From assembly GCA_963834385.1 (NCBI GenBank), contig CAWIBO010000005.1, positions 704,001-768,000 on the forward strand: a stretch of 64,000 nt of DNA. The letters are read 5' to 3'. Positions 44,967 to 64,000 of the stretch are shown here, piece by piece (position 1 is the stretch's first letter; each line of letters begins with the position of its first letter). The stretch is from an uncultured Verrucomicrobiae bacterium. GTDB lineage: Bacteria; Verrucomicrobiota; Verrucomicrobiia; Chthoniobacterales; UBA10450. The notes below the pieces were generated by a model that had not been told where the DNA came from, searched no databases, and saw nothing but the letters and a program-made list of their open reading frames with translations. The position numbers were made by a program, and so were the translations under genes.

Positions 44967-44976
44967 GGGGACTGCG

Positions 44977-45143: not shown

Positions 45144-45677
45144 GTGAATCGGCTTTGGTTTCTTCTGTTTTTCGTTTTCGCCTGTGTCCGGTCTGTCCCC
45201 GGGCAGGCCATGTTTTCCGACCAGGTGCTTTCCTCGCCCTCGCCCTCGCCCACCGCGTCCGTGGCGACGAAGCCCACCCCCACTCCCATTCCTTCCATCC
45301 TGCCGCCGGATATCGGCGCACCCGCTCTTCCCTCGGAGCTGCCGAACCTGCCTGACATTTCCGAGCTGGATCAGGCTTTCGAAAAATCGGATCTCGGCAA
45401 GGAAGCGGAGGAGAATCGTTATCGCGTGGAGCTGCGGAAGCTCAAGAATCAGGTCGCGCAGGACGAGGAAATCCGGAAAGCCCGCAAGACCGCCGACCGT
45501 GCCCGGACCGATCTCGAGCGCCGGCGGCTCCGCCGCGAATACTACGAACTTTATTATGGCCGAATGCGCGGGCTCGCCTCGAGCGAAGGCTTGAAGCGGT
45601 ATATCGACCGGATCAGGGACGGCCATATCGCCACGCTCGCCCAGCCCAGGGTGCGCCCCTCCTCTGCGGCAGAATAA
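45144..45677 (+). CDS. hypothetical secreted protein
   Basis: Hydrophobic N-terminus, Pro-rich linker, charged helical C-terminus. Confidence 0.7.
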   Translation: MNRLWFLLFFVFACVRSVPGQAMFSDQVLSSPSPSPTASVATKPTPTPIPSILPPDIGAPALPSELPNLPDISELDQAFEKSDLGKEAEENRYRVELRKLKNQVAQDEEIRKARKTADRARTDLERRRLRREYYELYYGRMRGLASSEGLKRYIDRIRDGHIATLAQPRVRPSSAAE

Positions 45678-45690
45678 ACCTCCGTTGCAG

Positions 45691-46410
45691 ATGACACCTG
45701 CTTCCAGCGACGCGCGTCTGCCGCTCGGGACAACCCGTTTGCTGGAATGGAGTCCGCTCATCCTCCTGGGCGGTTTTTGGTTCGCGATGGTCCTGCCGGC
45801 CACCCAGGATTTCTGTGCCCTCCTCCTGCGCGAGAATTATCCGGTCGAACTGCTCACGTTTCTCGCCGCGCTCGCTGGTGCCGTGATCGGTTTTCGGCTG
45901 GTGGCCCGCCTGCGCGCAGTCGGCGCGCCCGCCGGCGTTCGCCTCTTTTTCCTTCTTTTTTCGATCGGCCTGCTCTTGCTGGCCGGCGAAGAGGTCTCCT
46001 GGGGCCAGGACTTCTACTGGTACAAGACTCCCCGCTTCATCCGCCTCCATAACGCGCAAAACCAGGTGACCCTGCACAACCTCGAAATCTGGCACGGGCA
46101 CAATCATCTGCTCCGGCTCTTCTTCGGCGTCGGCGGCCTTCTCGGTCTCTGGCTCGGCCGCTTCCCGGCACTTCGCCCGGTCACGCCTCCACCCCTTCTC
46201 TGGCTCTGGTTCTCTCTCATCACCATGAAGAGTCTGGTCGATGTTTACGTCAAGAACGTGCCGGTCAGCGCCATGACCTTCTACGAGATCAACAAGGTCA
46301 GCGAAGTGGTCGAAATGATGGTCGCCTTCACCGGCCTGCTTTACCTCTGGCTGAAAACCCGCGCTGCCACAGGGCGAGCCGACCCCGCCTTGATCAGCGC
46401 CCGGGCCTGA
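45691..46410 (+). CDS. hypothetical multi-pass membrane protein
   Basis: RENYPVE, GEEVSWGQ, HNAQNQVTLHN; ~6 TMs. Confidence 0.78.
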   Translation: MTPASSDARLPLGTTRLLEWSPLILLGGFWFAMVLPATQDFCALLLRENYPVELLTFLAALAGAVIGFRLVARLRAVGAPAGVRLFFLLFSIGLLLLAGEEVSWGQDFYWYKTPRFIRLHNAQNQVTLHNLEIWHGHNHLLRLFFGVGGLLGLWLGRFPALRPVTPPPLLWLWFSLITMKSLVDVYVKNVPVSAMTFYEINKVSEVVEMMVAFTGLLYLWLKTRAATGRADPALISARA

Positions 46411-46430
46411 CTATCTTCCGTCTCTTCCAC

Positions 46431-46502
46431 GGCGCGTTCGTCTAGTGGTTAGGACACAGCCCTCTCAAGGCTGGTACACGGGTTCGACTCCCGTACGCGC
46501 TG
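46431..46502 (+). tRNA. tRNA-Glu (anticodon CTC), CCA not encoded
   Basis: GGCGCGT acceptor stem pairs with ACGCGCT; D-loop TAGTGGTTAGG; CAGCC-CTCTCAA-GGCTG anticodon arm; GGTTCGACTCC T-arm. Confidence 0.96.
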
Positions 46503-46511
46503 CGTTTTCTT

Positions 46512-47210
46512 TCAGACGGAAAACCCGAAGTGGCTCAGGTAAATCCGGAGATCCCAGAAGAGGGTCGCGATCTGGAAGCTGACCACGAAAAGAAGAGCGT
46601 GCGCCAGGGCCGGGCGCGCCTCGAAAAAGCGCCCCGTCGCTCCAGCCCAGGCACGGCGCACCGGACCGGCCGTGAGGAAGACCACGGTGCCAATGCCCAG
46701 CAACGCGCCCGCCAGCAGATCAGTCGGATAATGCACGCCCACGTAAATCCGCGGCAGGGCAATCACGAACACTATATAGAGAAGGAGCCAGTTCCCCACT
46801 TTCCGGTGCGCCAGCCAAATCCCGCACCAGAGCGCAAAAAACAACGAGGCGTGATCGCTCGGGAACGAACTCCAGTGTGACCAGTTCGCCTGGTCGGGCA
46901 ACCCGGTCGGCGGACGAAACTCCAGCCCATCAGCCAAAACCGGTCGCACCCGCAGCGGCAGGGTTTGCGCCAGCACCCGGGCCAGCACCAGCGCCAGGAG
47001 CGATCCCAGCACCCCGGCCAGCAGGGTCATCCGGCGGGCGGCTTCCTCCCGCATCGGCCGCGAAAACCAGAGACCCCAAAACACCGCCATGATGGCCGCT
47101 CCCTTCACCACATCACTGTTTGAGAGCACCACCACGATCCGGTCAAACAGCTCCCACTGTTGCGCTCCCTGATTCAGAAAAGTGATGACCGAGCGGTCGA
47201 ACGGATTCAT
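46512..47210 (-). CDS. PAP2 family phosphatase
   Basis: RVRP, SFPSDH, PRIYVGVHYPTD. Confidence 0.92.
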   Translation of the reverse strand: MNPFDRSVITFLNQGAQQWELFDRIVVVLSNSDVVKGAAIMAVFWGLWFSRPMREEAARRMTLLAGVLGSLLALVLARVLAQTLPLRVRPVLADGLEFRPPTGLPDQANWSHWSSFPSDHASLFFALWCGIWLAHRKVGNWLLLYIVFVIALPRIYVGVHYPTDLLAGALLGIGTVVFLTAGPVRRAWAGATGRFFEARPALAHALLFVVSFQIATLFWDLRIYLSHFGFSV

Positions 47211-47309
47211 CGGCCCTTCCGTTCTACAGGAGCCCGCCCGTTCTTCGCAACTGCTCGTCTCTCTTTCCTTTCATTGTGCCAAAGCGCAATTTCGGCTCTT
47301 CCTTCACCC

Positions 47310-48029
47310 GTGCCCGCTCGCGTTGCCCTCCTCCTTTGCATTTCCCTCCTCGCCGCCTGCGAACGGCCCGAAATCTTTGAGGGACGCGCCACCATCCTCG
47401 CGGTCGATGGCGACGCGGTCCTGCGCCGGGGCGACGCCCGCATTCCGCTGACCACCGCGGTGCAACCGCGCCCCGGCGATCGCATCCGCCTCGCTAAAGG
47501 CGCCACGGCGACCATCTCGCCCCTCCCGGGTCTGCGGCTGACTCTTTCCGATCGGGCCGAAATTCTCTTTGAGGAATTGCGGGTGCAAAAGCGCGGTGAC
47601 GCCACCTCCGGAGCGATGCGCTCGCGGCGGGCCGAGTTCTGGCTCTTTCGCGGAAAAGTCCGGGTCGGCGTGGCCGGATTTCGTGAGGGCGCGGAGACCA
47701 GTCTTCTTCTCCGCATGGACCCGGGCGCGATCGAGGCCGGCCGCGGCGCCATTTTTTCCGTTGAAACCGGCCCTGCCGGGGCGCAGGCCGTTTGTGCCGA
47801 TGGCCGGATCCGCTTCTACAAGCAGGGCCTCGATGAGATGACGGAAATTCCCCAGCGGCGCTGGAAAAGCTGGACGCCCGCCGGGGATACCGTGACCAAT
47901 CTCGCCAGCGTTCGCGGCCACCCGGAACTCGAGGAAGAGCTGGGAGCCAGCCTCGCCGCCGCCCGGGCTGCCTTTAATATGGAACAGGGCCGGCGAGGGC
48001 TGTTGCCGGGTAAACCCTCTTCACCCTGA
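47310..48029 (+). CDS. lipoprotein with FecR-like beta domain
   Basis: GTG start, LLAAC lipobox; GDRIRL, GKVRV, RGAIFSV, CADGRI pattern. Confidence 0.6.
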
Positions 48030-48100
48030 AGTATTTTATTGCCGAAACGCGTGGAAAAGATACAATCACGCGCTCTAATCAGAAGTTCCAGAATAAGCCT

Positions 48101-48430
48101 ATGACCCTCCGTTCCCTCTCCCGCCTTGCTCTTGCCACCCTCCTCAGTGCGTCGCTTTCCCTCTCGGCGACCGCTCAGACCACCACCAGCGGCGACGACG
48201 CCCGCAAGGTGAAATCGCCCGAAAAGCCGACGCCGACGCCCAAGCCGTCGCCCACGCCCAAACCTTCTCCGACCCCAAAGCCGTCGCCTACCCCGAAACC
48301 GTCTCCGACTCCGACGCCTAATCCGACGCCAAAGCCGACCAAGCCGCCGAAGCCAACTCCGACGCCTAAGCCGTCGCCGACGCCGAAGCCAACGGCTACG
48401 CCTAAACCGACGGCTACGCCTCGGCCCTGA
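48101..48430 (+). CDS. secreted Pro/Thr/Lys hexapeptide-repeat protein
   Basis: Signal peptide followed by ~11 P[S/T]PTPK units with synonymous DNA variation. Confidence 0.8.
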
Positions 48431-48477
48431 GCGGACTTCCAACCTCACCGACCGCAGTTCCGCACTTGGGTATCTTT

Positions 48478-49909
48478 ATGAGGCAGCCAGGCCGCTCCGG
48501 GCTGGTTCGCCCCATGTTCTCACGCCTGTTTGTGCTTCTCGGGCTGCTCGCCAGCGCTTCCCTGCTTGCCGGCGGAGGAGATCACGGATTTTGCCGCCCC
48601 GGACCCGGCACCGGCCTACGCCGCGGCTGATCCGGTCACGGAGTATGCCGCCTTGGACGAAGCCCTCCTCCCGGTCGAACCGGCCTACCTCACGGCCCAA
48701 CCGGACGCGGTGGCCGAAGTCGACGCGGAGACCCCATTGCCGGAGAACGACGGGCCACAGGTGATCACCTCCCCGGACCAGGAGGTCTCAGCGCACGTCC
48801 GCCGCTTTCATTACCGGCTTCGTGTCACCGTGCGCGGCGCCTACGACGACAACATCAATCTCTCGAATGTGAATCCAGTCGAGGATTACTACGTCTCGGT
48901 CGAACCGTCGCTGATGCTCGGTTTCGGCGCGATCGAGGGGGGCGGCGATAATTTTCTCAAGGCGGAATACACCCCCATCTTCACCGCCTTCATGGAGAAC
49001 ACACAGTTCAACACTCTCCAGCATACTTTCCAGGCTTCCGGTCAATGGAAACTGAGCCGGCTTACCCTCGGGCTCAGCCAGCAGATTCAATTGCTTGAGG
49101 GACCGGACATCGATCTGCTCAGCAACCTCGAAGGCGTCACCTTTTCCAACGTCAACATCGACGCCGGCGGCCGCCAAAAAACGAACATTTACGGCACCAC
49201 CCTGACCGCCGCTTACGATTTCACCGGCAAAACGTTCGTCAGCAGCACGCTCAACTGGGGCTTGAGCGACCCGGAAGGCCTGATCGGCACCCAGACATTC
49301 AGCGGCGATCTTTTCCTGAACTATCGCTACAGCCAAAAGCTCACCGTCGGCCTCGGCGGTGGCGCCGGCCAGCAGTTCGTCGAGGCGCCCAGCCCCGATT
49401 CCCATTTCGAGGAGGCACGGGTTCGTCTCGGCTACGACGCCACGGGCAAAGTGCAGTTCAACGGGTCGGCCGGTGTCCAGTTCCGGCATTCGGATGGCGA
49501 TAACTCCACCTACACCACGCCCGTTTTTCAGCTCGGCATGAATTACAAGCCGTTTGACGGCACCACGGTCAACATTTCCGGCACCCGGCGCACCACCGCT
49601 TCGGCCGCCCTCGCCGGGCAGGACTTCGCCGCCACGGAGTTTGTCGGCAGCATTCGCCAGCGCTTTCTCGGCCGGTTCCTGCTTGGGCTGACCGGAGGTT
49701 ACAGCAATCTCGCTTATTTCGGCTCGGCCAGCGGGGTCAGCGGCGGTCGCGAGGATAACTACTATTTTATCCAGCCTTCGGTTGATGTTAGACTGACGAA
49801 CTTCTGGTTCGTCGGCCTTTACGCCGTTCACCGCGAGAATGACAGCACCGCCACCCTTTTCAGTTTCGAGGAGAATCAGGCGGGCCTCCGGACCGGTCTT
49901 CAGTTCTAG
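48478..49909 (+). CDS. outer-membrane beta-barrel of the EPS export locus; probable +1 frameshift ~48571
   Basis: Signal MFSRLFVLLGLLASASLLA in an adjacent frame; GAYDDNI, amphipathic strands, C-terminal Phe. Confidence 0.8.
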
Positions 49910-49934
49910 GTCCTTCTTTCCCCGGCGTCACCCT

Positions 49935-50647
49935 ATGCTTTGTCGTCTTTTCATGCCCTTGCTCCTTGCGGCCACCTGCGTCACGGCCGGCGCGCAACAA
50001 CCCTCGCCCGGAACCGCCGCCGCTTCACCCGCGGCCACCCCCCTGGTCGATCTCGGCCCACCCCGTGCCGTGCCCGTCGCCCCGCCCCGCACCTCTTCCG
50101 CCACGGCCAACCCGAACGCCATCAGCGCCCCCAGCAGTTACCGTCTCGCGCCCAAGCGACCAGGTCGTCCATCGAGGTTTTCGGCGAGGACGATCTGCGC
50201 ACCAACGCCCGCCTTAATTCCGACGGCGCCCTCAGCCTGCCGCTCCTCGGCGCGGTCAAACTGGCCGGGCTGACCCTGAACGAGGCGGCATCACGCCTGA
50301 CCGAGCTTTACGGTCGCGATTATCTCGTCAGCCCGAAGGTCAACGTCACCCTCGTCGGATACGCCAAACGTCGCTTCACCATCCTTGGCCAGGTCAATCG
50401 CCCCGGCAGCTTCGAGATGCCCGACGGCAGCCCGAATGGCATTGATTTGCTCGAGGCCATCGCCATCGCCGGCGGTTACACCCGTATCGCCGCCCCTGAA
50501 CGGATCAGCGTCCGCCGCAAAAGCGAAGGCGGCGACAAAGTCCTGCGCGTCAACGCCAAGCGCCTCGCCAAAGGCCAGGGCGCCAACGCCGGCGGCTTCC
50601 GCGTCGAACCCGGCGACACCATCACCGTAGGCGAATCGATCTTTTAA
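49935..50647 (+). CDS. polysaccharide export protein (Wza/OPX-like); extra bases near 50154 and 50170
   Basis: YRLAP-SDQV-IEVFGEDDL...DGALSLPLLG (PES motif), SLBB GQVNRPG, AIAIAGG. Confidence 0.88.
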
Positions 50648-50828
50648 AAAGCTGAAAACTGAAAAGCTGAAAAGCTGACATAAGAATGAATCAGGAAAGC
50701 AGGAGGGAAAGAGGATGGAGAGTAGAGGATAGAGAATCGCCGCTCCCCGATAACCAATAACCAATAACCGATCACCGCGCCGTCCCGGCGCTCCCCCTTC
50801 TTCCTTCATAATTCATAATTCTTAATTC
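50648..50828. repeat. mosaic of short tandem repeats (AAAAGCTG, GGATAGA-like, TAACCAA, ATAATTC) plus the 16-mer hairpin
   Basis: Read directly in the wza-wzc intergenic region. Confidence 0.85.
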
Positions 50829-50836
50829 AATCAGCA

Positions 50837-53325
50837 ATGCCCCTCCCAGAAACACCGCGCCCCGCCAAAGCCGCACCCCTTACCTACGCCGAACCGCCGC
50901 GCGGCTTTGATTTCCGCCAGCTCTGGCATGCCGTCCTCGAGCGCGCCTGGATCGTCATCCTCTGCACCGCTCGCCGGTCTTTTTCTCGCGCTCGGACATC
51001 TCGCCCGTACCCCGAAGATTTATCAGGGCCACATCACGCTCGAAGTCGATGTCGCGGAGCAAGGCATCAATGCCGCCGATTCCGGCGACACCGCCGGGCG
51101 GGTCCGCTCCATGTTCCTCGCCAGCCAGGAAGCGCTCCGCACCATTGAACAGAATCTCACCAACCGTTCCATGCTCGCCCGGGTCATCCGCTCGGAAGGG
51201 CTCGCCTCGGACGAGGGCCGCGCCCTCCTTGGTCACACCGACAAAAAAGCGCCCACACCGCCGCCCGCCCCCGCAAAACCTGCCGCAGCCTCGGAGCGCG
51301 AGTCGGCCTTTACCCCCATCGAGAACGCGCTCGCCGGCGCTCTTGCCGGCATGGTCAAGCCGGTGGTCCGTCGCGGCACCCGCCTGATCGACGTTTATGT
51401 CACGCACACGGACCCCGCCATGGCCCAGCGCCTGGTCGAGGCGGTCGGCCGCGAATACATCCGCGGCTCGGTGGCCCGCCGCGCTTCCTCCACCCAGGAC
51501 ACCCTCCGTTATCTCCTCGAGGAAGAGGAACGGCTGAAAGCGAATTTGCAGAAGAGCGAGGCGGCCGTGGCCGAATACAAAGCGAAGACGCCTGACGCCC
51601 TCCAGCTCGGCGGCGGCGCCGCCTCCACCGGCAGCCAGCAGGGCGCCGGTTCGGGCTCGGGCGGCAGCCGGGGCGGGTTGGTCGAGGATCGGTTGCAGGA
51701 AATGAGCGGGAAGTTCACCGGGGCCAAAACGGAACGGCTCCGACTCGAGGGCGAGCTCGGGCCAGGTCGAACGCGCCGGGGAAGATGTGGACGCGCTCCT
51801 CGCCATTCCCAGCATCGCCAGCGCGCCTGTGGTCATGGACCGCCGCCGCGAGCTGGCGCAGGTGCAGGCGGCCGTGGCCACGCTTTCCCAGCGCTACAAG
51901 GAACAGCATCCCCGCATGATCGCGGCCAAGGCGGCCCTCGAGGAAGTTCAGGCCGCCCTGAAACGCGCCGTGCTCGAGCAGCCCGCCACGCTCCGCAACG
52001 CCCTCCAGCAGGCTCGCGCCACCGAGGAACAAATGGCCGCCGCCGTCACGGAACAGGAGAAAGCCGCCATCGCCCTCAACCGCGCCGCCATTGGCTACCA
52101 GGAACTGGCCCGGCAGGCCGAGACCGACCGCGCGCTCTACGAAAGCGTCCTGCGCCAGATCAAATCCACCGACCTCAGCAAAGGCGTAAAGAGCAACGCC
52201 GTCAGCGTCGTGCAAAATTCACCCTTGCCCGGCCGCCCGATCAGTCCGCAGCCCATGAAAACGATCATGCTCGGCCTTTTCGGCGGTCTCGCCGCCGGCC
52301 TCGGCGTCATCTACGCCCTGAACATGATCGATCGTTCCCTGAAAACGGTGGACGAAGCGGAATCGAACCTCGGCATGCCGGTGCTCGCCGCCGTTCCGGA
52401 AGTGAAAAATCGCGAAGCGTCCAGCCGTCCGAAGGAGGAGATGGAGGGCGAGATCGGGAGCGCCAGTTACCGGCTCCTTGCGGAAGCGCCGGAAGGCCCT
52501 GCGGCCGAGGCCTTCCGCAACCTGCGCGCCGCGCTTTCCTTGCTCGGGCCCGAGGCCGAACGTCGCGTTTTCCTCTTCACCAGCGCGCTCCCGGCGGAAG
52601 GCAAAAGTTTCACCAGCGCGAATTACGCCCTTTCCCTCGCGCAGCAGGGGCACAAGGTGCTCCTGATCGACGGCGATCTGCGCCGGCCGAGTCTCGACAA
52701 GATTTTTCGCCGGGTGCTTCCCCCTAACGCCCGGCCCACGGATGAGTTCGGGATCGTCGATTACCTGATCGGCAACACCACCCTGCAGGAGGCGATGCAT
52801 CCTGTCTCCGCCTCGCAGGTGGACGTGCTCGGGTCGCGCGAGAACCGGCAGGCCACCGTCACCGCCACGGGCGGCGAACTTTTCCTGCTCGCCGGCGGCC
52901 AGCGCGCCCCCAACCCGGCCGAGCTGCTCAGCGGCCACGTCTTTGCCGAGCTGGTCGCGGCCGCTTCCAAGCTTTTCGACCGCGTGGTCATCGACAGCGC
53001 GCCCGTCCTGGCGGTGAGCGATACCCTGCTCATGACCGCCTACGTCCAGACCGTCTGCATGGTGGTGCGCTCCCGCAAAACCCCGCGCAACGCCGTGCAG
53101 CGCGCCCTCGCCATGATCGCCGGCACCGGCATTCGCCCGGCCGGCGTGATCCTGAACCGGATGCCGCGCCAGCGCGGCGCCGGCTACTATTATTACTACG
53201 CGTCGCCCGGCTACGGCGCCGGCGAAGGCGCCTACAGCGGCGCGGGGTATGAGAGGAAGCCGGCTGGGCGCAGCCCGGCTGCCGGTGGTCAGAAGTCTGA
53301 AGTCGGAAATCGGAATTCAGGCTGA
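50837..53325 (+). CDS. polysaccharide co-polymerase / tyrosine autokinase (Wzc/GumC); +1 frameshifts ~50969 and ~51760
   Basis: DFRQLW, YKEQHP, AEAFRNLR, ALPAEGKS, DGDLRRP, VIDSAP, GYYYYY cluster. Confidence 0.92.
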
Positions 53326-53426
53326 TCGCACAAGCGCAGCCGGCTGCCCGCGAGCTGCGGAAGCTTTAGGTCTTAAGCTTTAAGTTTTAAGTGTGCGCGC
53401 GCGCGCTGCGCGGCATCTTCCCCCGC

Positions 53427-53450
53427 GGAGGGACGAGCTTCTGCTCGTCC
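53427..53450 (+). repeat. REP-like element: GGAG tag + 8-bp hairpin
   Basis: GGAG-GGACGAGC-TTCT-GCTCGTCC. Confidence 0.55.
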
Positions 53451-53465
53451 AAGCCTGCAGCAAAC

Positions 53466-53591
53466 TAACCAATAACCAATAACCAATAACCAATAACCAA
53501 TAACCAATAACCGCGCCGCCCCCGCCGCCCATCACCGATCACCGATCACCGATCACCGATCACCGATCACCGATCACTGATCACCGATCAC
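53466..53591. repeat. heptamer arrays (TAACCAA)x6 and (ATCACCG)x8
   Basis: 53466-53512 and 53531-53591. Confidence 0.95.
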
Positions 53592-53646
53592 TCGCGCCGT
53601 CCCGGCGCCCCCCGGCCTCCGACCTCCGGCACCCTCCGACCTCCGG

Positions 53647-53895
53647 CTAGCCTTCATTTTCCTGCACGCGAGATCCATTCCCGATCTGCTGATGCAGGCC
53701 GGTCATGGTGAGGAGCGGTAAAATATCGAAGCTCTCACCCTCGTCCTTTGCGTTGAACACAATGACGTAGCCGGCCTTATTCGGCGGAAGGGCAATATAA
53801 TCCCGGTGGGGAACGGAATACTGAAGCCCGTCTGCCATTTTCAGAACAAAAGGCAGATTACTCTCCACCGCTCTCTCAATCTGACTCCGCGTCAC
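53647..53895 (-). CDS. small hypothetical protein (PFxLxMADGxxYxVPH type)
   Basis: 82 aa, lower GC than neighbours, own promoter-like TTGAAA-N18-TATTGT 7 nt before the GTG. Confidence 0.75.
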   Translation of the reverse strand: MTRSQIERAVESNLPFVLKMADGLQYSVPHRDYIALPPNKAGYVIVFNAKDEGESFDILPLLTMTGLHQQIGNGSRVQENEG

Positions 53896-53975
53896 AACGC
53901 AAACAATATCAACGGCCGCCCGGTCCTTTCAACTCCATTCACCGCCTGGCGGGAACAGTTATCGAAGGTGAGATG

Positions 53976-54197
53976 TCAGTGATCAGCGGTCAGCGCTCGC
54001 CCTTCCGATCTCCGACTCCATCTTCCGGCTGCTTCGCAGCGCCTTTCAGCTTGTCAGCTTTTCAGCATTTTCCCCTCTCCGCTCCCGGCCTCCGACTTCC
54101 GACTTCCTCCCCCTGATAACCGATAACTGACAACTGATCACCGCGCCGTCCCGGCGCCCTGCCTCTTAACTCTTAATTCTTAATTCTTAATTCTTAA
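53976..54197. repeat. mosaic of heptamer/octamer arrays and GC hairpins
   Basis: CAGTGAT/CAGCGGT, TCCGATC, CAGCTTTT, CCGACTT, ATAACYG and CTTAATT arrays; 16-mer hairpin at 54142. Confidence 0.85.
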
Positions 54198-56128
54198 TTT
54201 CCCCCGTTCCCCAACAGATCCCCAAATACACCGCCACATAAAGCTGGATCGAAAAGATCTGTAACGGAAAATCCACCAGCGCGTGCAGCGCCACCCCGCC
54301 CAGCGCCAGGACCACCAGCGGAACCAGCAACCGATGCCGCGGCAACCAGGACGGCGGGGAAGAATTTTCGATTCTCGATTTTCGATTCTCGATTGCTCCC
54401 TTCAGCTTCTCGCGTTCTCCTTCCTCCCATTAACCGATAACCGATAACCGATAACCGGCTGCCCGCAGCCTACCGACAACTGATCACCGATTACCGGCCG
54501 CTCCGCGGCCCTTGTCAGCTTTTCAGCGTTTTCTCCTTCCTCCCCATTAACCGATAACCGATCACCGATAACCGGCTGCCCCGCAGCCTCCACCGATAAC
54601 CGATCACCGATTACCGGCCGCTCCGCGGCCCCTGTCAGCTTTTCAGCGTTTTCTTCTTCTTCTTCCCCACTAACCGATAACCGATCACCGATAACCGGCT
54701 GCCCCGCAGCCTCCACCGATAACCGATCACCGATAACCGGCTGCCTCCGCAGCCATCTCCCATCTCCTATCTTCCCGGCCGCTTCGGCCGCTCGCAGCAG
54801 CCGCCCCCCCAAAGAACAGCGCCGCCCAGAGCGCGCCCCCCAGCCACCCCCATTCCAGCAGCGTTTGCAGATAATCCTGGTGCAGATACCGCCACCCTTC
54901 CCGCAGCTCCGTCCCTTCCCCGCGCGCCACGTGCGGAAAGATGGTGCGGAACGTGCCCGGACCGTACCCCAGCAGCCCGGCCTCCGGCACCCCGCGCAGC
55001 GCCGTCCGCGCCGCCGGCCAGCGCAGGTCCTGAGCACACTTTCCCCGGTGTTTTGCCAGCGCTCGATCGGACGATCCAAACGGCTCGCCTGCCCAATGGC
55101 GTAGATGGCCACGACCAGCAGCAGCACCGTGGCCGCGCCGGTGATCTTCTCCGCGCCCCGCATCAAGCCCGCGCACCCGCGGCAAAGCTGCGACGATCAG
55201 CACCAGCATCAGGAGCAACCCGATCGCCTGCGCGGCCCGCGACGTGTTCGAAACCACCGCGCCGGCCGTGACCAGCGCCGCCGCGATCCAGCCCCCGCGC
55301 ACCAGCGGACTCGCGCGATGATGCAACGCCCGGTAAGCCAGACCAAAGACCACCGGCAGGACGAGGTTCAGGTAGGCGCCCGCGTTGGCGTGATAAAAGT
55401 AGGTCGCAAAGAACTGCGGCGGACCGTAACGCGATTCACCCCAGAAAATCATCTCGGCGCCCGTGCCTTTCTGGAGCAACCCCAGCAGCGCGATGGACGT
55501 GCCGGTCAGGGCCACGCCCGTGAGCAGACGCAGAAACCACTGCGGACGCCGGCAAAGATCAGCCACAAAGAGGAGCACGCCCAGGAGAAGCGTGGCTCGC
55601 GTCATCCAGGCGAGACTTACCGCCTTGTCCGCCGACCCCGGCCAGCCCGGCCAGGCCTGGTCAATCGGCACCCAGAGATCAAACTCCGTGTCATAGATCC
55701 CCTTCCCATTCCAGGCCATCGCCCATCCGAGGAGCAGCAAAGCCCCCACGATCCCCCAAAGGACCCACCGCCCCGTTCCCCTTTTTCCTTTTTCCTTTTT
55801 CCTTTTGCCTTCCGCCCCCCTCCTCTTCTCCGACCTCCGACCTCCGACCACCGATAACCGGCCGCTTCGCGGCCTTCTTCCCAATAACCATTAACCAATA
55901 ACCAATAACCGGCGGCTGCCCCGCAGCCGCCCCCACCCACAGCAACAGCACCGCTGCAAGCATCCATTCGAGGATCCGGCCGCTCTCCAGCGTCGTGGTG
56001 CCGTAAGCCCACGGCGCCCAGACCAGCGCCACCACCAAACCCCACCCGGCCACACCGCCCAGCAGCGTAGAAAACTTCCAGCCCCGCGGCAGCGGCGGCA
56101 GCCATTGAATACGCGGTCGACGCGACAT
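54187..56128 (-). CDS. O-antigen ligase/polymerase (Wzy_C)-like membrane protein with repeat-derived insertions and several frameshifts
   Basis: [47 protein letters not shown]; final [23 protein letters not shown], stop at 54187-54189. Confidence 0.8.
54415..54755. repeat. ~120-bp composite unit repeated ~2.7 times inside the ligase gene
   Basis: GATCACCGATTACCGGCCGCTCCGCGGCCC at 54482 and 54602 (period 120); units are heptamer triplets alternating with hairpins. Confidence 0.9.
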
Positions 56129-56183
56129 GCGGCCAACACTAAGCCAGGAAGAACCCCGGAAGGAATCGGAAGTTGGTTACTTG

Positions 56184-56612
56184 TTATTTGTTATCAGTTA
56201 TTGGTTCTCGCGCGAAATTCGTTCCCGTTGCCCCGGCGCGTTTAAGATAAGCCATGTAGCCATTCAAGAGACGGACCGCCGTGCTGACGAGATCGCGACC
56301 CTCTTCGAGCATCTCACTCGAAATCATTTTCTCGTCCTGCGCGGCGATCAGATGATCGAGGACTTCCCAGCATGAGCCGCGCGCGTTGCTGCAGAATTTC
56401 GCGTTATCGAGATGATGAAATCGTCCGTAACCCTCCGCGATATTTGCCGTCGTCGAGCGTGCCGCGCGTAAGATTTGATCCCCCAGACGGTATCGCTCCT
56501 CTTTCGGGAGCGCCGGGATTACGGAGCCGGAAACGAATTTCCGTAACTCACGACACGCCTGCCAGCACTCAAGATCTTCAAAGCTCCGAATGGGGGCACG
56601 TTCACCACTCAC
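56184..56612 (-). CDS. four helix bundle protein (23S rRNA IVP / S23-like family)
   Basis: SFEDLECWQ, LPKEERYRLGDQILRAARSTTANIAEGYGR, ARGSCWE, LLNGY. Confidence 0.93.
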   Translation of the reverse strand: MSGERAPIRSFEDLECWQACRELRKFVSGSVIPALPKEERYRLGDQILRAARSTTANIAEGYGRFHHLDNAKFCSNARGSCWEVLDHLIAAQDEKMISSEMLEEGRDLVSTAVRLLNGYMAYLKRAGATGTNFAREPITDNK

Positions 56613-56645
56613 CGGCTAACGTTATCAGACCGGTCAATCCTCCCG

Positions 56646-56724
56646 ACCAATAACCCATAACGAGTAACCAATAACGATCTTCCCTCACCGCCTCCCAATA
56701 ACCAATAACCAATAACCAGTTACC
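56646..56724. repeat. (CCAATAA)-type heptamer arrays upstream of the four-helix-bundle gene
   Basis: accaataacccataacgagtaaccaataac and ccaataaccaataaccaataaccagttacc; inverted relative to 56172-56206. Confidence 0.9.
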
Positions 56725-56825
56725 ATTTCCCCTTCTCATCGAGCAGCCTTTATTGTAATTTCAAGAACCGCTTTTCGCCGCGCCTTGCCGCCTCCAGGCA
56801 GCGGGCGGCGGTCGCCCCGCACTCC

Positions 56826-58347
56826 ATGCTCGCCACCGATCATCTCGACACCCAGCCATCCGCGCCGATGGCCGTCGAGCCGATCCCGCCTCCTGCGCCG
56901 GTCCGGCCGGCCCCGGCCCCGACCCAAAGCCGCTGGCGCCGGTTCGCCCGCACCGCTGTCCGGCAGGACTGGTCCGCGCCGGCCCTTTGCCTCCTGATCG
57001 ACGTCGGCCTTTGGAGCGTGATCTACGGCACGACCGCCTACGTCCGCGGCGATTCCTTTTATTCCACGCCGCTCCAGTTTGCGGTCATCAACCTGATCCC
57101 GCTCGCGGTTCTCTTTGCCGCCCTTTTCATCATTGGCGGATACGATCGCCGGACCCCGATGCGCAGCCTGGTCTATACCAGCGAACACATCCTGGCCATG
57201 ATCACGGCGGCCGTCGTCTCCTCCCTCCTGATTTACGCCGCCGCCGCTTACGACCAGCAGATGCGTCCCAGCCGCGGCGCCCTGCTTGATCAGCTTCATC
57301 CTCTTTTCTCCGCTCTCCCTCATCTACCGCCGGATCATCTGGCGGTATCTCGCGGTCTCGACCGCCAACCGCGCGTTTCTGGTCATCGGCGCGGGCGAAC
57401 TGGCTGCTTCGTTTTATCGGGCCTACAAAACCTCGCCCAACCGCCAGCGACTCGAGTTCGTCGCGCTCGAACGCGACCGGGTGGGCGAACCGATCTTTGG
57501 GCCCGGGTCACCGATCATCGAGGGCGACCTCGCGACCAAGCTGGAACGGCTCGACTCCCAGTATAGCGGCGTGATTCTGGCGGAAGCGGTCGATCGCCTC
57601 AGCCCGAAGCTGCTGGATCGTTTGGTCCGGACCCAGTTTCATTCCACCCGGGTTTACACCATGGAATCGTTTTACGAGGCGCACTGGCGACACGTCCCGG
57701 TGCAGGCGCTTGACCCGTTCTGGCCGTTGCAGACCGGGTTCCAGCTCGCCAGCATCTCGCCTTATCATTACGTGAAACGCCTCTTCGACATCCTCCTCAC
57801 CGGCCTATTGCTGGTCGTGTGTGCCCCGGTCATGGCCTTGATCGCCGTTGCCATCTGGCTTGAGACCGGCCGGCCGATCATCTTTCGTCAGACCCGGCTG
57901 GGGCGCGAGGAGCTGCCCTTCAGCGCCCTGAAGTTCCGGACCATGTTTTTGCGGACGGGGGAAGAAGCCGGGGAAGACATTTACACCCGGCAAAACGATC
58001 CGCGGATCACCCGGGTGGGCCGGCTCCTGCGCAAGCTGCGTCTGGACGAACTGCCGCAGCTTTGGAACGTGTTCCGGGGCGAGATGAGCCTGATCGGTCC
58101 CCGGGCCGAGTGGGACCGTTGCGCCGAGCGTTACGCCGCCGTGATCCCGTTCTATCATTTCCGGCACCTGGTAAAGCCGGGGATCACCGGCTGGGCCCAG
58201 GTCAATTATCCGTATGGCGAAAGCGACGCCGACGCGATCGAGAAACTAAAGTTCGACCTCTACTACATCCGCCACTACTCCCTGAAGCTCGATCTCATGA
58301 TCGTCCTGAAAACGATTCACACCGTCCTTTTCGGAAAAGGAAGGTGA
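56826..58347 (+). CDS. priming polyprenyl-phosphate sugar transferase; +1 frameshift ~57287
   Basis: N-terminal TMs; [41 protein letters not shown]. Confidence 0.93.
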
Positions 58348-58581
58348 GGTTTAAGAGTTAAGTTTTAGGTTTTAAGGGTTCAGGGTTCAGGACCACGGCA
58401 GTTCACCAAAGCTTAAGCCATGCGGCTGCCAATTTCAGCATTTCAGTTGTCAGCGTTTCAGCATTTTCTTCTTACTTCCGACTGCTCCGCAGTCCGTCTT
58501 CCCAATAACCAATAACCAATAACCAGTTCACCGCGCCGTCCCGGCGCCCCCCGACCTCCGATCTCCGATCTCCGACTTCCG
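58348..58581. repeat. mosaic of TTTTAAG/GTTCAGG, TTTCAGC, TAACCAA and CCGATCT arrays with hairpins
   Basis: Read directly; 16-mer hairpin at 58532. Confidence 0.85.
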
Positions 58582-58588
58582 AATGCCC

Positions 58589-58765
58589 CCGCAGTTTCTC
58601 TTCACAGAGCCGAAGCGAAAGCAGCAGCTCCGCGATGACGCGTTGCGCGACATAAAACCAGCCGCGCCAGCCATCGAGAATGAGGCCGCGCCCGAACAAG
58701 AGGTAAAGAAACATCACCGGCGGCGCCAAAACGATTTTCAACCGCAACCGATCCTGCAGGCTCAG
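58589..58765 (-). pseudogene. orphan 3' fragment of a family-2 glycosyltransferase (paralog of 62198-62986)
   Basis: DRLR...LAPPVMFLYLLF..GL.LDGW.GWFYV.QRVIAEL.LSLRLCE.KLR: 45/55 aa identical to 62231-62395. Confidence 0.88.
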
Positions 58766-58805
58766 CGGTTCCGCATTCTCCTTTCCGCCTTCTTCTCGCT
58801 CCCGG

Positions 58806-58886
58806 CTCCGCGCCCCGTGCTCCGCGCCCCGCGCCCCGTGCTCCGTGCTCCGTGCTCCGTGCTCCGTGCTCCGTGCTCCCTGCTCC
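58806..58886. repeat. heptamer array (CTCCGTG) x11
   Basis: ctccgcg ccccgtg ctccgcg ccccgcg ccccgtg (ctccgtg)x5 ctccctg. Confidence 0.95.
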
Positions 58887-58914
58887 AAACGACATCACTT
58901 CGTGAGCAGATCAT
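58885..58914 (-). pseudogene. probable PemK/MazF-type toxin N-terminal stub
   Basis: MICSRSDVVW overlapping the antitoxin stop, then cut off by the heptamer array. Confidence 0.45.
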
Positions 58915-59104
58915 TGAAGATATCATCGCCCGGATTATCCCAGACGTTCGCAAGCGATTCTTCTGATACCCTCAGCCATGCCGCACGCGAAGTATCTGCG
59001 TCCGCGGGTTCAACCGTCGACAACACTAGAGTGTCATCCGGGAGCGGAAGCGGTTCTTTCAAAATGAGTTTCCCTTCCAGATATTGCGCTTCCACCGTCG
59101 TCAC
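58895..59104 (-). CDS. putative antitoxin (AF2212/DUF104-like N-terminus, WDNPxDD C-terminus)
   Basis: MTTVEAQYLEGKLILKEPLPLPDDTLVL...WLRVSEESLANVWDNPGDDIFNDLL. Confidence 0.65.
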   Translation of the reverse strand: MTTVEAQYLEGKLILKEPLPLPDDTLVLSTVEPADADTSRAAWLRVSEESLANVWDNPGDDIFNDLLTK

Positions 59105-60962
59105 GAGACAAACAATAATGCTGGCGGACCATAGCCAGCAAGTTTTTCCCTGACGGACCCAGCCGTGCCCCCAGCGAATGCCGGGCAATAAAGTTGTCGA
59201 GGGCAAAAAGGCACCACGATCGATACCAGCTTTTTAGCGGCACCGGGCTTCGCTCACCAATCTTCTTGAAAATATCGTCCCACTCTCCTGTCACCCACTC
59301 CTGGAACGGAAAAGTGAACCCCTGCTTGGGACGATTCCGAACCCATTCGGGAATCTCTGGCACAGCATCAAGCACAAGCTTTTTTCCGCGGGCCAGCCTG
59401 ACTGCCGCCGGGATGGATTCGATCGCCTCGACCAGACGGCTGTCCACGAACGGCACCCGCAGCTCCAGGCTCCAGGCCATGCTCATAACGTCGCTGTCGC
59501 GCAGGAGCTGGTTTCGAATATACCGCCCAATCTCCACATAACTGACCTCATCCTCGATCGTTGGCTGGCTGGGGACATGAAACCCTGCCTGGATGGGACG
59601 GCCCAGTTCTTCACAGCCGTAATACGGGAGCAGCGCGCTAACCTCGGCCGGAGTGAAAATGCCGCGCATGGCCCAGTAGGCCGACGCCGTCAGGGGGGCG
59701 TCGCGCAGGAAATGCCCGAGGCGCGCCGTTCGGGGGGAGACGTGGAGGGCTTGCAACAATCGGCCGGCTCCCATCTTCAGAGGCCAGATCGGGGTCAGGG
59801 CGCGGCTGGCGCGGACCAGCTTTGGCACGGTCTGGAATGATTGATAGCCGCCAAACAGCTCGTCTCCGCCGAGGCCGGAAAGCACTACTTTCAGCCCCTG
59901 CTCGTGAGCAAGTTTAGCAACGCAGAAAGTATTAAATCCGTCGATGCTCGGCTGATCCGAGACCGCCAGGAATTTAGCCAGGAGCGATTTTGCCGTAGCC
60001 GAATCCAGCTCCCAGTCGACATGGTCAGTCCCGAAATGGCGCGCGGTGCGGGCCGCCACCTTTCCCTCATTGATCGATTGGTCGGCAAAAGATATGCAAA
60101 ATGTCTTTAACTGCGTGCTCTGCCGGGCGGAACTGAGCGCAACCATCGCAGTGGAGTCGATTCCTCCGCTCAAGAAAATCCCGACCGGCACATCGCTCAC
60201 CAAATGGCGCGCGACCGATTCTTCCAGCGCCTGCCGAACCCGTGGCGGACTCTCTTCGGCCGGAATGCCCCCATCGGAAAACCGGATGTCCCAGTATTTG
60301 CGCAGCGTCGTCTGACCACGACGCCAGACCAGGTAATGGCCCGGCGAAAGCGCTCGGACGCCTTCAACCAGCGTCAGAGGCTCCTGCACCGCTCCGAAAA
60401 GCAGGTAGCCGGAAACGGCTTCGGGCGATAAACTGAGCGGCACCAGGCCCGAACGAATAAGCGCGTTAACTTCCGAAGCGAAAATCAGGGCGCCATTCCG
60501 GTCAGTGTAATAGAGGGGCTTCACCCCGAGAGGGTCGCGCGCCAGGAAACAGGATTGCTCCGCTGCGTCCCAGATCGCGACCGCGAACATCCCCGCAAGT
60601 TCCCGGACAAACTCCGGGCCGTCGCGCTGGAACATCCGCAGAACTACCTCCGTGTCGGAATGCGACTCGAACTGCTCGCCTTTCGCTTCCAGTTCGCCGC
60701 GCAGCGCCTTGAAATTGTATATCTCCCCATTGAAAACGATCCGGTAACGCCCGTCGCGCGAGCTCATCGGTTGATGACCGGCGTGCGATAAATCGAGAAT
60801 CGCCAGACGGGTATTCACCAGCCCGGCCAGTCCATCCTCCGACTGGAACACGCCGGAATCATCCGGCCCCCGATGACGGAGGTCCCCTTCCATTTGCGCG
60901 AGGGCCCGCGCCACTCGCCGCGGCTCCGAGGTTGTCCCAATCGCTCCGGCGATCCCGCACAT
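59034..60962 (-). CDS. asnB: asparagine synthase-like glutamine amidotransferase (EPS modification)
   Basis: MCGIAG, HRGPD, FNGEIYN, LSGGIDS, SGLGGDE, ELRVPF; C-terminal ~45 aa overlap the antitoxin locus and are doubtful. Confidence 0.93.
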   Translation of the reverse strand: MCGIAGAIGTTSEPRRVARALAQMEGDLRHRGPDDSGVFQSEDGLAGLVNTRLAILDLSHAGHQPMSSRDGRYRIVFNGEIYNFKALRGELEAKGEQFESHSDTEVVLRMFQRDGPEFVRELAGMFAVAIWDAAEQSCFLARDPLGVKPLYYTDRNGALIFASEVNALIRSGLVPLSLSPEAVSGYLLFGAVQEPLTLVEGVRALSPGHYLVWRRGQTTLRKYWDIRFSDGGIPAEESPPRVRQALEESVARHLVSDVPVGIFLSGGIDSTAMVALSSARQSTQLKTFCISFADQSINEGKVAARTARHFGTDHVDWELDSATAKSLLAKFLAVSDQPSIDGFNTFCVAKLAHEQGLKVVLSGLGGDELFGGYQSFQTVPKLVRASRALTPIWPLKMGAGRLLQALHVSPRTARLGHFLRDAPLTASAYWAMRGIFTPAEVSALLPYYGCEELGRPIQAGFHVPSQPTIEDEVSYVEIGRYIRNQLLRDSDVMSMAWSLELRVPFVDSRLVEAIESIPAAVRLARGKKLVLDAVPEIPEWVRNRPKQGFTFPFQEWVTGEWDDIFKKIGERSPVPLKSWYRSWCLFALDNFIARHSLGARLGPSGKNLLAMVRQHYCLSRDDGGSAISGRETHFERTASAPG

Positions 60963-60965
60963 GAC

Positions 60966-62114
60966 CTAGGTGCCGCCTCCTTTCCGGAGCTGAGCCACCC
61001 TTTGGATCAACTGCCGCAGATTCTCCCTGAATCGATCGTAATCATACGCCTCGCATACTCGGCGGCGCAGTTCGGTGGGATCCTGGAGGACCGCCAGCGG
61101 ATGGGCCCCTCGCAGAATGGCGATAACCTGCTGTCCCAGTTCGTCGACGCTGTCGGGATCGATCAGCGCGCCGATCGCGCCCCCCAGGAGAGCGTCGACC
61201 GATCCATCCTTGTTCCCGGCCAGGACCGGTTTCCCGCAGGCCAGCGCTTCCAGAAAAACGATTCCGAACCCTTCCCCTTTGCTCGGCATGGCGAAGAGAT
61301 CGCAAAGATTATAATGATCGCAAAGTTCGTGCTCCGGAATGTAGCCGGCGAGCGTGACCTGTTTGCTCACGCCTGCCTCGTCGATCAGCCTCTCCACCCG
61401 CCCCCGATCGGGTCCCTGCCCGCCAAGAATGTAGCGGATATCGGGGAAAGCATCGCGAATCGACGGCAGGGCCTGCAGCACCTGATCGTAACCCTTGTAA
61501 CGCTCGGCGCTGGCCAGACGGGCGATGGTCAGGATCACAGGCTGTTCCGGGGAAAGCCCGTAGCGTTTAAGAAGAAAGCGCGGCTTGGGACCCGGCACGA
61601 AATGACGGGAATCAAAGGTGTTTGGCAGAAGATTGATGGAATCTTCTATACGTCCGATCACCTCGGTCATCCGCCCCCGTGTGAACTCGCTCACGGCCGC
61701 CAGGCCGGGTGCTTCCTGCAAGGCACGGCGGACAGACTGGCGCGGGATGTCCCAGACTTCGATGCCGTGTCCGATGGCAAGGTAAGGAATTCCAAACCAC
61801 GTCCATAACGTTCGCGCCACCGGCGCGAAATTCACATGCGTCGTCAGAATCACGGTGGGCCGCAGCCGGACACCAGCCATTATAAGGCGGCCGGCGAAAG
61901 CCGCGGTTCGCAGAGACGCCGGCCACCAGCCTAGGGGTGTAAAACTGGTGGCCACATCATCATTCGGCGCTGGAAAACAGGTGTCGTTCTTCGAAAACAC
62001 ATGGACTTCAGCGTCCGGAAAAGCTTCGGCCAGCGCACGGATGGCAAAGCGGGAGAACGTCTGAATCCCACCCGTAGCCGAGGCATATTCCGGAACCCAG
62101 ACATGAATTCTCAC
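60966..62114 (-). CDS. glycosyltransferase family 4
   Basis: GGIQ, HGIEVW, YKGYD, EGFGIVFLEALACGKP. Confidence 0.93.
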   Translation of the reverse strand: MRIHVWVPEYASATGGIQTFSRFAIRALAEAFPDAEVHVFSKNDTCFPAPNDDVATSFTPLGWWPASLRTAAFAGRLIMAGVRLRPTVILTTHVNFAPVARTLWTWFGIPYLAIGHGIEVWDIPRQSVRRALQEAPGLAAVSEFTRGRMTEVIGRIEDSINLLPNTFDSRHFVPGPKPRFLLKRYGLSPEQPVILTIARLASAERYKGYDQVLQALPSIRDAFPDIRYILGGQGPDRGRVERLIDEAGVSKQVTLAGYIPEHELCDHYNLCDLFAMPSKGEGFGIVFLEALACGKPVLAGNKDGSVDALLGGAIGALIDPDSVDELGQQVIAILRGAHPLAVLQDPTELRRRVCEAYDYDRFRENLRQLIQRVAQLRKGGGT

Positions 62115-62169
62115 CCGCTTGTCTTAAGGGCACCTCGCGATCGCTGAAAGCTCCTTTTTCCTGCCGCCC

Positions 62170-62206
62170 CTTTTCAGCTTCTCAGGTTGTCAGCTTTTCA
62201 GCGTTT
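62170..62206. repeat. TTTCAGC-type octamer array at the 3' end of the GT2 gene
   Basis: ttttcagctt ctcaggttgt cagcttttca gcgttt. Confidence 0.7.
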
Positions 62207-62986
62207 TGTGTCGCCGTCCTCCGAACTGCTTCGCAGTTTCGCTTCACAAAGCCGAAGAGAGAGGAAAAGTTCTGCGATCACGCGTTGCACCACATAAAAC
62301 CACCCGGACCAGCCGTCTAAAGCCAACCCTTTGACGAAAAGCAGGTAAAGGAACATCACCGGCGGCGCCAGGAAGACTTTCTTTCTTAACCGATCGGCAA
62401 AGTTAAGGGCGGCATCTGAGGTCTGCAGTAAATGGGCCACCTCGATCTGGGCATACCGATCCTGAGCTGCGAGCCAGCGCGTTAAAGGTTTTCGATCGTC
62501 GTGGACAATTTCTCCGGTCAAGCGCGCAACTTCGCCGGTAATAACGAGCCTTTGGGTGTGCCCATCATCAACGTAATGGGCGCCCTCACGTCGAAAAAGG
62601 ACAATGTGAGCGGGATAGACTGACGTTCGGAGATTTCTGCTAAAGATCCTAAACTGAAAGCAAGCAGAGTAACCATTCGCCGTTGCAGGTATCAGATCCT
62701 GAATTTCCCTCGCCAACGCCGCTGTAACCTCGTAATCCGCATCGAGCGCGAGGACCCAACTAGTTGAAATCTGTCCTAGCCCAAAATTCCACTGCGCCGC
62801 GTGCGTGTCAAAATCACGTGAAATCGCGATGACGCCGGGATGACACTCTCTTGCTCTCTGTATCGTGTCGTCGGTACTGAAACTATCGATGATGACAATT
62901 TTTTCCAGCCAATGCAGAGCCCTTACCGTGCGTTCAATATTCTCGTTCTCATTATAAGTCAGAATGAGCGCGGTTATTGATAGCAT
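62198..62986 (-). CDS. glycosyltransferase family 2
   Basis: ILTYNENENI, DSFSTD, LDAD, HDDRKP. Confidence 0.93.
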   Translation of the reverse strand: MLSITALILTYNENENIERTVRALHWLEKIVIIDSFSTDDTIQRARECHPGVIAISRDFDTHAAQWNFGLGQISTSWVLALDADYEVTAALAREIQDLIPATANGYSACFQFRIFSRNLRTSVYPAHIVLFRREGAHYVDDGHTQRLVITGEVARLTGEIVHDDRKPLTRWLAAQDRYAQIEVAHLLQTSDAALNFADRLRKKVFLAPPVMFLYLLFVKGLALDGWSGWFYVVQRVIAELFLSLRLCEAKLRSSSEDGDTKR

Positions 62987-62991
62987 ATCAA

Positions 62992-64000
62992 TTAATTTTG
63001 TTGCAGCGATCGATACAGATCGACGAGCGCGTCGGCCACTGCGCGTCTCGAGTAACACCTTTCTCCCATCTGTCGGCCTCGTTCAGACATCTCAGCGGCC
63101 GCCTTGGGATTTGTCAGTATCCAGTCAATCGCATCAGCAATGGACTCCGGGTTTCGTTCGACGACCATTCCGCCATCCACCGCACGGACCTCACTGCTGA
63201 TTGCTACTTCGGGAGAAATGATCACGGGAATGCCGGCTGAGTAGTGCCTCCGCCGGCGCAATGCCGAAATTCTCGGAGGCAGAAGGCAAGACAAACACTT
63301 TTGCAGCTGCGAAGGCGGCGGCCTTTTCCTCCGGCCGTAAATGACCTGTCCACACGATGTGCCCCTCCAGAAACTGTTTCGTAACGAGTCTTTTCAGCTC
63401 GGTGACAAACGATTCCTCACCATCGCCGGCAATGACAAGCAATAAGGCAGGATGCTGATTGAGCAGTTTACCCAACGCTTCCAGCAAAAGCTCAATCCCT
63501 TTCTTCCGATCGATTCGGGAGAGGAACAGGATTACATCCCGATGCGTGACACCAGGAAAGCAATTACTGAAGGCCGCTGGCCCGGCTCTTTTAGGCACAG
63601 CCACCGGCAGAGGAATGATAGCTGTGCGCTTCACTGCGACCTCACGCCCAACATCAAGTGCTTCAGCCGCCTCCGCCTCCGACGTAAAATGCAGGGCGGC
63701 AGCTCCGCGAATCATTGGAAGCTCGACAACCTTTAGAGAAAGCTTTTTTGACCAAGCCCGCCGATTTGCCAAGCCCCATCGATTCAGGACACCAAGCGGC
63801 CGAATAATATAGGGAACGCCCGCTCGCCATGCAGCAGCAGCAGCAGCCGTGCTCAGAAATGAAAACACGGCATGAATGTGAATTACATCATACTCTCGCG
63901 CATGCGTCCGGAGCCAAAACGCCGCGCCGATCGAAATCTTGTATCGCAAGACGTTGCGCGGGAAGTACACGAAGTTGACGCCATCTTCCCGGATATGCTG
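62992..64000 (-). CDS. glycosyltransferase family 4, 5' end outside window; +1 frameshift ~63242
   Basis: HIHAVFS, SRIDRKKG, SENFGIAPAEAL-SAGIPV. Confidence 0.9.

Follow-up and report, generated by a model that had tools for sequence, protein, structure and literature searches.

The window analysed here, a stretch of 64,000 nucleotides (nt) from an uncultured Verrucomicrobiae bacterium (the source genome; assembly GCA_963834385.1, contig CAWIBO010000005.1, positions 704,001 to 768,000), carries on its minus strand a small gene of the PF05635/TIGR02436 four-helix-bundle family (56184-56612) that is flanked on both sides by arrays of heptamer repeats in inverted orientation. Gene and arms together form a unit that is real, general and, as a unit, apparently undescribed, its parts (the heptamers of the Coxiella intervening sequence, free-standing heptamer arrays and the Avd protein) having been published separately. 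We consider it about an even chance that this unit is a promoterless cassette, gained and lost at operon junctions, whose predicted pentameric protein likely binds the repeat of its own subfamily in a strand-symmetric form. The interest lies in the class of cassettes and not in the window locus itself, which is an ordinary, fairly old member of that class. The cassette comprises the following features:

56168-56205, minus strand: 3' arm of about four CAATAAC-type units, coding for the final residues and the stop codon of the gene
56184-56612, minus strand: four-helix-bundle gene (PF05635/TIGR02436), 142 amino acids with GTG at 56612 as putative start
56598-56632, minus strand: degenerate complement of the proximal arm, predicted to fold locally into a hairpin that covers the start codon (−29 kcal/mol)
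56646-56683, minus strand: proximal 5' arm of about four degenerate GTTATTG-type units, in the usual position immediately before the gene
56695-56725, minus strand: distal 5' array with a GTTATTG-type unit as in the proximal arm, the predicted partner of the 3' arm

An earlier note on this DNA had claimed that the segments 56176-56205 and 56646-56675 are complementary on the minus strand at 24 of 30 positions, with two further G-U pairs; this count was exact, and the score was reached by none of 2000 dinucleotide shuffles. The extended arms (56168-56205 versus 56646-56683) matched at 79%, and the 3' arm matched the distal array, near-identical copies of which stand free elsewhere in the locus, at 84%. 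The statement that the last residues of the protein (PITDNK) are encoded by the array itself was equally correct: the final codons and the stop lie inside the 3' array, all three frames of which carry stops. The single open reading frame (ORF) between the arms matches PF05635 only, and no transposase is encoded between the ends.

The protein family was first found inside ribosomal RNA genes. Its assignment in the earlier note was borne out by the matches to PF05635 (E 9e-26; 90.7 bits versus a cut-off of 33.8) and TIGR02436 (E 5e-24; 84.5 bits versus a cut-off of 24). According to the predicted structural model (predicted local distance difference test score of 90), the protein consists of four long helices and possesses the four-helix-bundle fold, as judged from the template modelling scores against Xcc0516 (2GSC; 0.77/0.93); the relation to Avd that had also been claimed was reflected in the structural match to this protein (4DWL; 0.67/0.84, at an identity of 10%), and homology of PF05635-type proteins to Avd has been described (PMC10053308). 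A homopentamer is predicted on the basis of the five chains in 2GSC and 2RLD.

The layout recurred throughout the family. In a first survey, 78 homologue loci were fetched, two of which were dropped for short flanks; with the 99th percentile of shuffles as the arm threshold, an inverted match was present in 54 of the remaining 76 loci and a direct match in 15, and 4 of 504 random pairs scored as high. A wide survey comprised 215 deduplicated genes of all subfamilies (of 265 hidden Markov model matches, 50 were dropped for being partial, duplicated or short of flanking sequence) from Verrucomicrobiota, Bacteroidota, Desulfobacterota, Lentisphaerota, Cloacimonadota, one gammaproteobacterium and one archaeal bin, a sample biased to genomes that hold the subfamily of the window gene; genomes G002, G007 and G014 were left out of it, as well as of the moxR|DUF58, metK|ahcY and array-versus-gene-presence counts given below. 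Inverted arms were found in 170 genes and direct ones in 31, the inverted arrangement being present in the majority of members for 52 of 62 subfamilies; homologues thus generally possess inverted flanks, the general lack of which would have counted against the earlier note. The number of PF05635 matches per genome reached 21; the source genome contains eight such genes (nine matches), of which five of the seven scored exceeded the arm threshold, each with a different unit, and short arms were visible by eye in the others.

Among the 170 inverted cases, the repeat period was 7 in 138, 8 in 18 and 6 in 6, and the 5' arm was G-rich in 150; the arms showed a median Watson-Crick pairing of 85% and a median longest perfect run of 12 base pairs (10 at the window cassette, or 17 with G-U pairs). 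One subfamily (L225, L226, L227, L230, L224, L106) has six-base units and a C-rich 5' arm, the opposite of the usual polarity; such six-base-unit arrays are also present in the window (34025-34084, 42009-42060, 44861-44893). The cassettes are closely fitted between neighbouring genes: the 5' arm begins a median of 4 nt past the upstream stop codon (n=119), the gene upstream points the same way in 153 of the 189 cases callable with a crude ORF picker, and the 3' arm ends at most 20 nt from an in-frame start in 64 of 118 cases. The same layout occurs between cas10 and cmr3 on a cyanobacterial plasmid, and four-helix-bundle genes of PF05635 type have been reported inside cas loci (PMC3936711). 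None of the 215 neighbourhoods matched the rRNA operon stretch of the source genome.

The repeat unit follows the protein subfamily. The frequency at which the 5' arm of one gene matched the 3' arm of another rose with protein identity, from 1.2% below 35% identity to 40% at 60-70%, 59% at 70-80% and 84% above 80%; the trend was retained for hosts differing by more than 10 points in GC content (1.3%, 19.5% and 39%). Within the subfamily of the window gene (55 genes with a mean of about 4.2 units per arm), in which the arrays were located by periodicity and not by motif, a GTTA core was conserved at 85-96% in both arms and positions 5-7 at only 53-77%. Members of this subfamily reside at more than 12 unrelated junctions (39 of 60 neighbour representatives named by Pfam), including V-ATPase B|D, two sites within the NADH dehydrogenase operon, and ABC transporter and sugar-pathway operons. 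Counted automatically, 45 loci gave 33 distinct junctions, a figure inflated by shadow ORFs; the Pfam naming was used instead. An archaeal (Bathyarchaeia) bin (L016) holds a member at 76% identity with the same arms; an ABC permease gene of one kind precedes both this member and a Desulfobacterota locus, which points to either operon transfer or a binning error.

Three junctions were compared between genera of one family (not strains), and the direction of each event is not read from them. The first is that of the window, where the cassette is neighboured by the following features:

54205-56128, minus strand: downstream O-antigen-ligase-like gene, split in the assembly and interrupted at two places by heptamer strings
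55881-55910, minus strand: free array with a GTTATTG-type unit in the 5' part of the ligase gene, the first block of a mixed-heptamer string (about 55780-55910)
56826-58347, plus strand: sugar transferase gene, inverted in the source genome; in relatives it lies upstream in the same direction

Fifteen relatives possess the ligase, with the sugar transferase directly upstream in 11; among these 11, one contains the window subfamily, one a frameshifted gene of a different subfamily with its own unit, five gene-less arrays (in one case both arms of the window cassette's unit around a possible remnant) and four an empty junction. At moxR|DUF58 (28 loci), three full cassettes with one unit, one fragment and 12 short spacers were present; at metK|ahcY (28 loci), two full cassettes, two internally deleted ones with the arms kept, and 16 short spacers. 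As these junctions are variously occupied, empty, reduced to the arms or replaced in relatives, the cassette has been gained and lost; the presence of the window cassette at the same site in several genera shows that it is old there. The proposal of a self-contained cassette in the earlier note is supported by these alleles together with the inverted arms of most homologues; empty sites, the absence of which would have counted against it, were encountered at all three junctions.

Other elements share these junctions. At moxR|DUF58, a small GIY-YIG gene lies between long inverted palindromes in 8 of 28 loci (L265, L271, L272, L281, L282, L284, L289, L291), and the palindromes occur without the gene in four further loci; they resemble the CGTC/TGTC-tagged repetitive extragenic palindromic (REP) sequences, for which no dedicated transposase was found in a study whose main text does not mention GIY (PMC3733652). 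At metK|ahcY, the cassette is replaced by GxxExxY (PF13366) genes (five full, three deleted), which likewise possess inverted arms; units of about 8-10 bases make up the arms of GxxExxY genes at loci L323, L324, L325, L296, L301, L305, L313 and L318 (the first three being C3:1406, C5:656000 and C3:254672 of the source genome).

The earlier note had described the cassette as similar to an intervening sequence (IVS) but in an mRNA, processed at the RNA level or mobilised at the DNA level. On the RNA view, the arms would pair in the transcript, RNase III would cut the stem, and the ORF would be released as in 23S rRNA. An rnc (RNase III) gene is encoded in the source genome, and the predicted fold of the locus does contain a stem enclosing the ORF (z −3.25), with the difference that the 3' arm pairs with the distal 5' array (27 expected pairs) and not with the proximal array named in the note, which folds back over the start codon instead (20 expected pairs). 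The energies of the three possible duplexes are close (−32.2, −32.0 and, for the 3' arm with the ligase-internal array, −28.8 kcal/mol); nevertheless, the latter pairing, put forward in the note as an alternative, had no expected pairs in the full fold and 25 when the 5' arrays were omitted, and is disfavoured. The Coxiella 23S IVS contains GACAGAT repeats in its 5' arm, the first of which is the site of RNase III cleavage (PMC4990558). The assumed transcript, by contrast, is not evident at the window locus, because the sugar transferase lies on the other strand and no co-directional upstream gene is present.

A more general argument comes from the mismatches of the arms: if these were selected for pairing in the transcript, G-U should exceed A-C. 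Over the 170 arm pairs, 223 G-U versus 208 A-C mismatches were counted (p=0.5; 25 versus 22 by subfamily), and sense and antisense duplexes were equally stable (89 versus 77, p=0.55), whereas terminator-like hairpins of the source genome, counted similarly, gave 18 G-U to 0 A-C in 32 hairpins. These values lend no support to an RNA stem under selection and weaken the reading as an IVS in mRNA, against which the lengths of the perfect runs given above also count; incidental cutting by RNase III is still compatible with them. RNase III is largely structure-specific, and its action would leave the subfamily-specific units unexplained. Excision from an mRNA is consequently regarded as unlikely.

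The RNA might be involved in a different manner, as a regulator: the ring would bind one of the arms in single-stranded RNA form, and a choice between pairings would gate the translation of its own and of the next gene. The position of the arms next to the upstream stop and the following start, the hairpin predicted over the start codon, and the polarity of the free arrays (see below) are consistent with this, and such a role has been proposed by MacGregor for the TAACTGA repeats (PMC4679880). However, both arms keep one core as reverse complements without any wobble bias, the same junctions work without a cassette in most relatives, and the polarity may have arisen because C-rich stretches, as loading sites for Rho, are selected against; we therefore consider RNA-level regulation rather improbable.

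Free heptamer arrays are abundant in the source genome, with 257 arrays of period 7 or 8 versus 4 per Mb in random sequence; 102 of them match a cassette unit exactly, compared with 5% for random words (the cassettes of the source genome contribute to the unit library). Within 60 nt of a stop codon, the sense strand of the arrays was G-rich in 65 of 76 cases, and before starts it was C-rich in 17 of 21 (as delimited with a home-made gene caller); the 146 arrays farther from genes had no polarity. The number of GTTA-array matches had a median of 23 in five genomes of the family with the window subfamily versus 1 in 53 without it (p=0.0003), a statistic that ignores kinship and is confounded by the cassette's own arms, which add matches. 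The abundance and mostly unpaired state of the arrays would also fit neutral microsatellites, grown at tolerant spacers by slippage and template switching, along with which the gene merely travels. Indeed, the arms of one locus resembled each other more than those of other loci (mean percentile 0.82; position 6, p=0.0005), as template switching would give. But neutral growth leaves unexplained that one unit is kept per subfamily across phyla and junctions, that its core is conserved, and that inverted exceed direct arrangements five to one; this explanation is accordingly deemed quite improbable.

Under the favoured reading of a mobile cassette with a repeat-binding ring, the following mechanism may be envisaged. 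The ring would read the repeated core, with roughly one unit for each subunit, in the manner of Avd, all five subunits of which read flipped-out bases. Since the arms lack a sense-strand wobble bias, recognition would be strand-symmetric, i.e. of two inverted DNA sites or of a hairpin on either strand. The arms would represent the cassette ends, the short spacer after a stop codon would tolerate the insertion, and the gene would be expressed by host transcription. Movement would be slow and require an enzyme in trans, and decay by internal deletion would result in gene-less arms as one source of free heptamer arrays.

A rival reading is that a reverse transcriptase supplied in trans teams up with the Avd-like ring and copies the looped-out RNA to new sites; such a non-autonomous retroelement could be suspected from the fold shared with Avd, the partner of the reverse transcriptase of diversity-generating retroelements (10.1101/2023.10.23.563531). 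The search of the source genome (89.6% complete) for reverse transcriptases (PF00078) gave no match, though, and the identity of only 10% to Avd and the missing sense-strand bias likewise argue against it, so that we rate it as very improbable. In a wider and more tentative form, for which the chances are clearly below even, the mobile-cassette reading would make PF05635 a large family of sequence-specific five-part rings with one heptamer word per subfamily; gene and arms would constitute a nuclease-free counterpart of the REPtrons that seeds heptamer arrays and is moved by a borrowed enzyme, possibly the GxxExxY (PD-(D/E)XK) nucleases at the same junctions, and the ORF-bearing 23S IVS would be such a cassette landed in rRNA.

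Several observations weigh against the cassette reading. No arms above the threshold were detected in 45 of the 215 genes, only 24 of the 257 arrays of the source genome belong to an inverted pair, and 8 of the 53 family genomes without the window subfamily hold at least 8 GTTA-array matches, from which it follows that the arrays persist after loss of the gene or also arise in other ways. A quick tree of the 55 subfamily members left most relationships unresolved, with support of 95 or above for 4 of its 52 inner branches, and the correspondence of unit and subfamily could partly reflect joint descent; because kin are non-independent and the tree is weak, this correspondence is a strong pattern that is not phylogenetically controlled. 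Inspection of subfamily consensuses and core words, with uncertain registers, revealed no residue-to-base code. The net charge of the monomer is zero (20 K+R, 20 D+E), and Avd is described as positively charged (10.1101/2023.10.23.563531). With the query used, the gene was rare on vehicles (5 of 72,556 plasmids, 0 of 50,697 phages and one viral contig). No target-site duplication or defined target motif was evident by eye at the three junctions, where the genomes compared are too diverged, no strain-level empty allele was found in these genus-level comparisons, and no mobilising enzyme was found.

The surroundings of the window cassette form a polysaccharide cluster according to Pfam and TIGRFAM profile matches. 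In four relatives (L010, L017, L057, L327), sugar transferase, cassette and ligase follow each other in the same direction; in the source genome, the sugar transferase gene is on the strand opposite to the cassette and is flanked by near-identical arrays in direct orientation, and both a real inversion and an assembly error are possible. In two further loci (L011, L032) the cassette is reversed relative to the ligase or sugar transferase, so that the gene or its neighbours can flip. Mixed heptamer strings occupy the neighbouring spacers and the two places within the ligase gene (54370-54780, about 400 nt, and 55780-55910, about 130 nt), the sense strand of these insertions being G-rich; they include a 123-nt unit in 2.8 copies, and each insertion has a break of the reading frame in it or close by. 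The frames on the two sides of the string are offset by one base, and the ligase may therefore undergo phase variation through the number of heptamer copies; assembly indels stay an alternative, because wzc (50837-53325) and the sugar transferase gene, too, are interrupted. Their single-base frameshifts have no arrays and are probably assembly indels themselves. Between heptamer strings at 58595-58786 (minus strand) lies a copy of the 3' end of a GT2 gene (62335-62395; 79% DNA identity), and two small ORFs on the minus strand (53647-53895 and 58895-59134), single-copy in the genome and without Pfam match, each adjoin such strings. A tRNA gene (46431-46502) was the only match in an Rfam scan of 44000-64000, with nothing at the cassette; the 23S rRNA gene of the source genome is on another contig, and the cassette is not inside an rRNA gene.

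The excess of heptamer arrays in bacterial genomes is known but lacks an explanation (PMC4692102, PMC4679880); the pairing of subfamily and unit ties it to the PF05635 genes, to which no function has been assigned. Should this pairing hold, dozens of natural, orthogonal protein-repeat pairs would exist, and the ORF-bearing rRNA IVS would become a special case. In a literature search covering few subscription papers, none was found that joins PF05635 genes to inverted heptamer arms outside rRNA; genes next to repeats are tabulated in the supplements to PMC4679880 and PMC4692102, and PF05635 genes may be among them.

In comparison with known systems, the cassette shares with the Avd proteins of diversity-generating retroelements the fold and, as predicted, the pentameric state, the Avd ring contacting an RNA stem-loop with all five protomers (10.1101/2023.10.23.563531); it differs from these retroelements in its low sequence identity, in the lack of a reverse transcriptase match in the source genome, and in that no template or variable repeat was seen at the locus. 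Like a REPtron, in which a RAYT gene is flanked by its own REP repeats (PMC3733652), it consists of a single gene flanked by a short repeat that is also scattered genome-wide, with repeat-specific protein variants; but the RAYT protein belongs to the tyrosine transposases and the REPs are palindromic, while the cassette possesses tandem heptamers and a gene without known catalytic role. Free arrays have been described as TAACTGA repeats in Beggiatoaceae, cyanobacteria and Bacteroidetes (PMC4679880), for which an unidentified binding protein was suggested as the possible mobile element, and as GGGAATC repeats in Xanthomonas with a mode of four units, the same polarity and inverted pairs (PMC4692102). 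The unit TAACTGA agrees with the TAAC core. The published arrays resemble those described here in their copy number of about four, in being G-rich where they follow a stop and C-rich where they precede a start, and in their frequent arrangement as inverted pairs; the main texts of the two papers draw no link to four-helix-bundle genes. The units of the cassettes differ by subfamily, unlike the fixed attC core of integron gene cassettes. Similar, too, are the 23S rRNA IVS of Coxiella and Leptospira, in which an S23p ORF lies between complementary arms, in Coxiella with tandem heptamers in the 5' arm (PMC4990558); PF05635-type genes have also been reported in rRNA insertions of bacteria of the candidate phyla radiation (10.1101/2024.02.27.582315). 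The protein family, the enclosed ORF and the heptamers are alike; unlike the IVS with its near-perfect stem of 28 base pairs (PMC4990558), the cassette has imperfect arms without RNA-strand bias and is situated at a protein-coding junction of a polysaccharide locus. It is best filed with the IVS-type elements that carry a gene in inverted arms, being no 23S IVS by location and with RNA excision unsupported.
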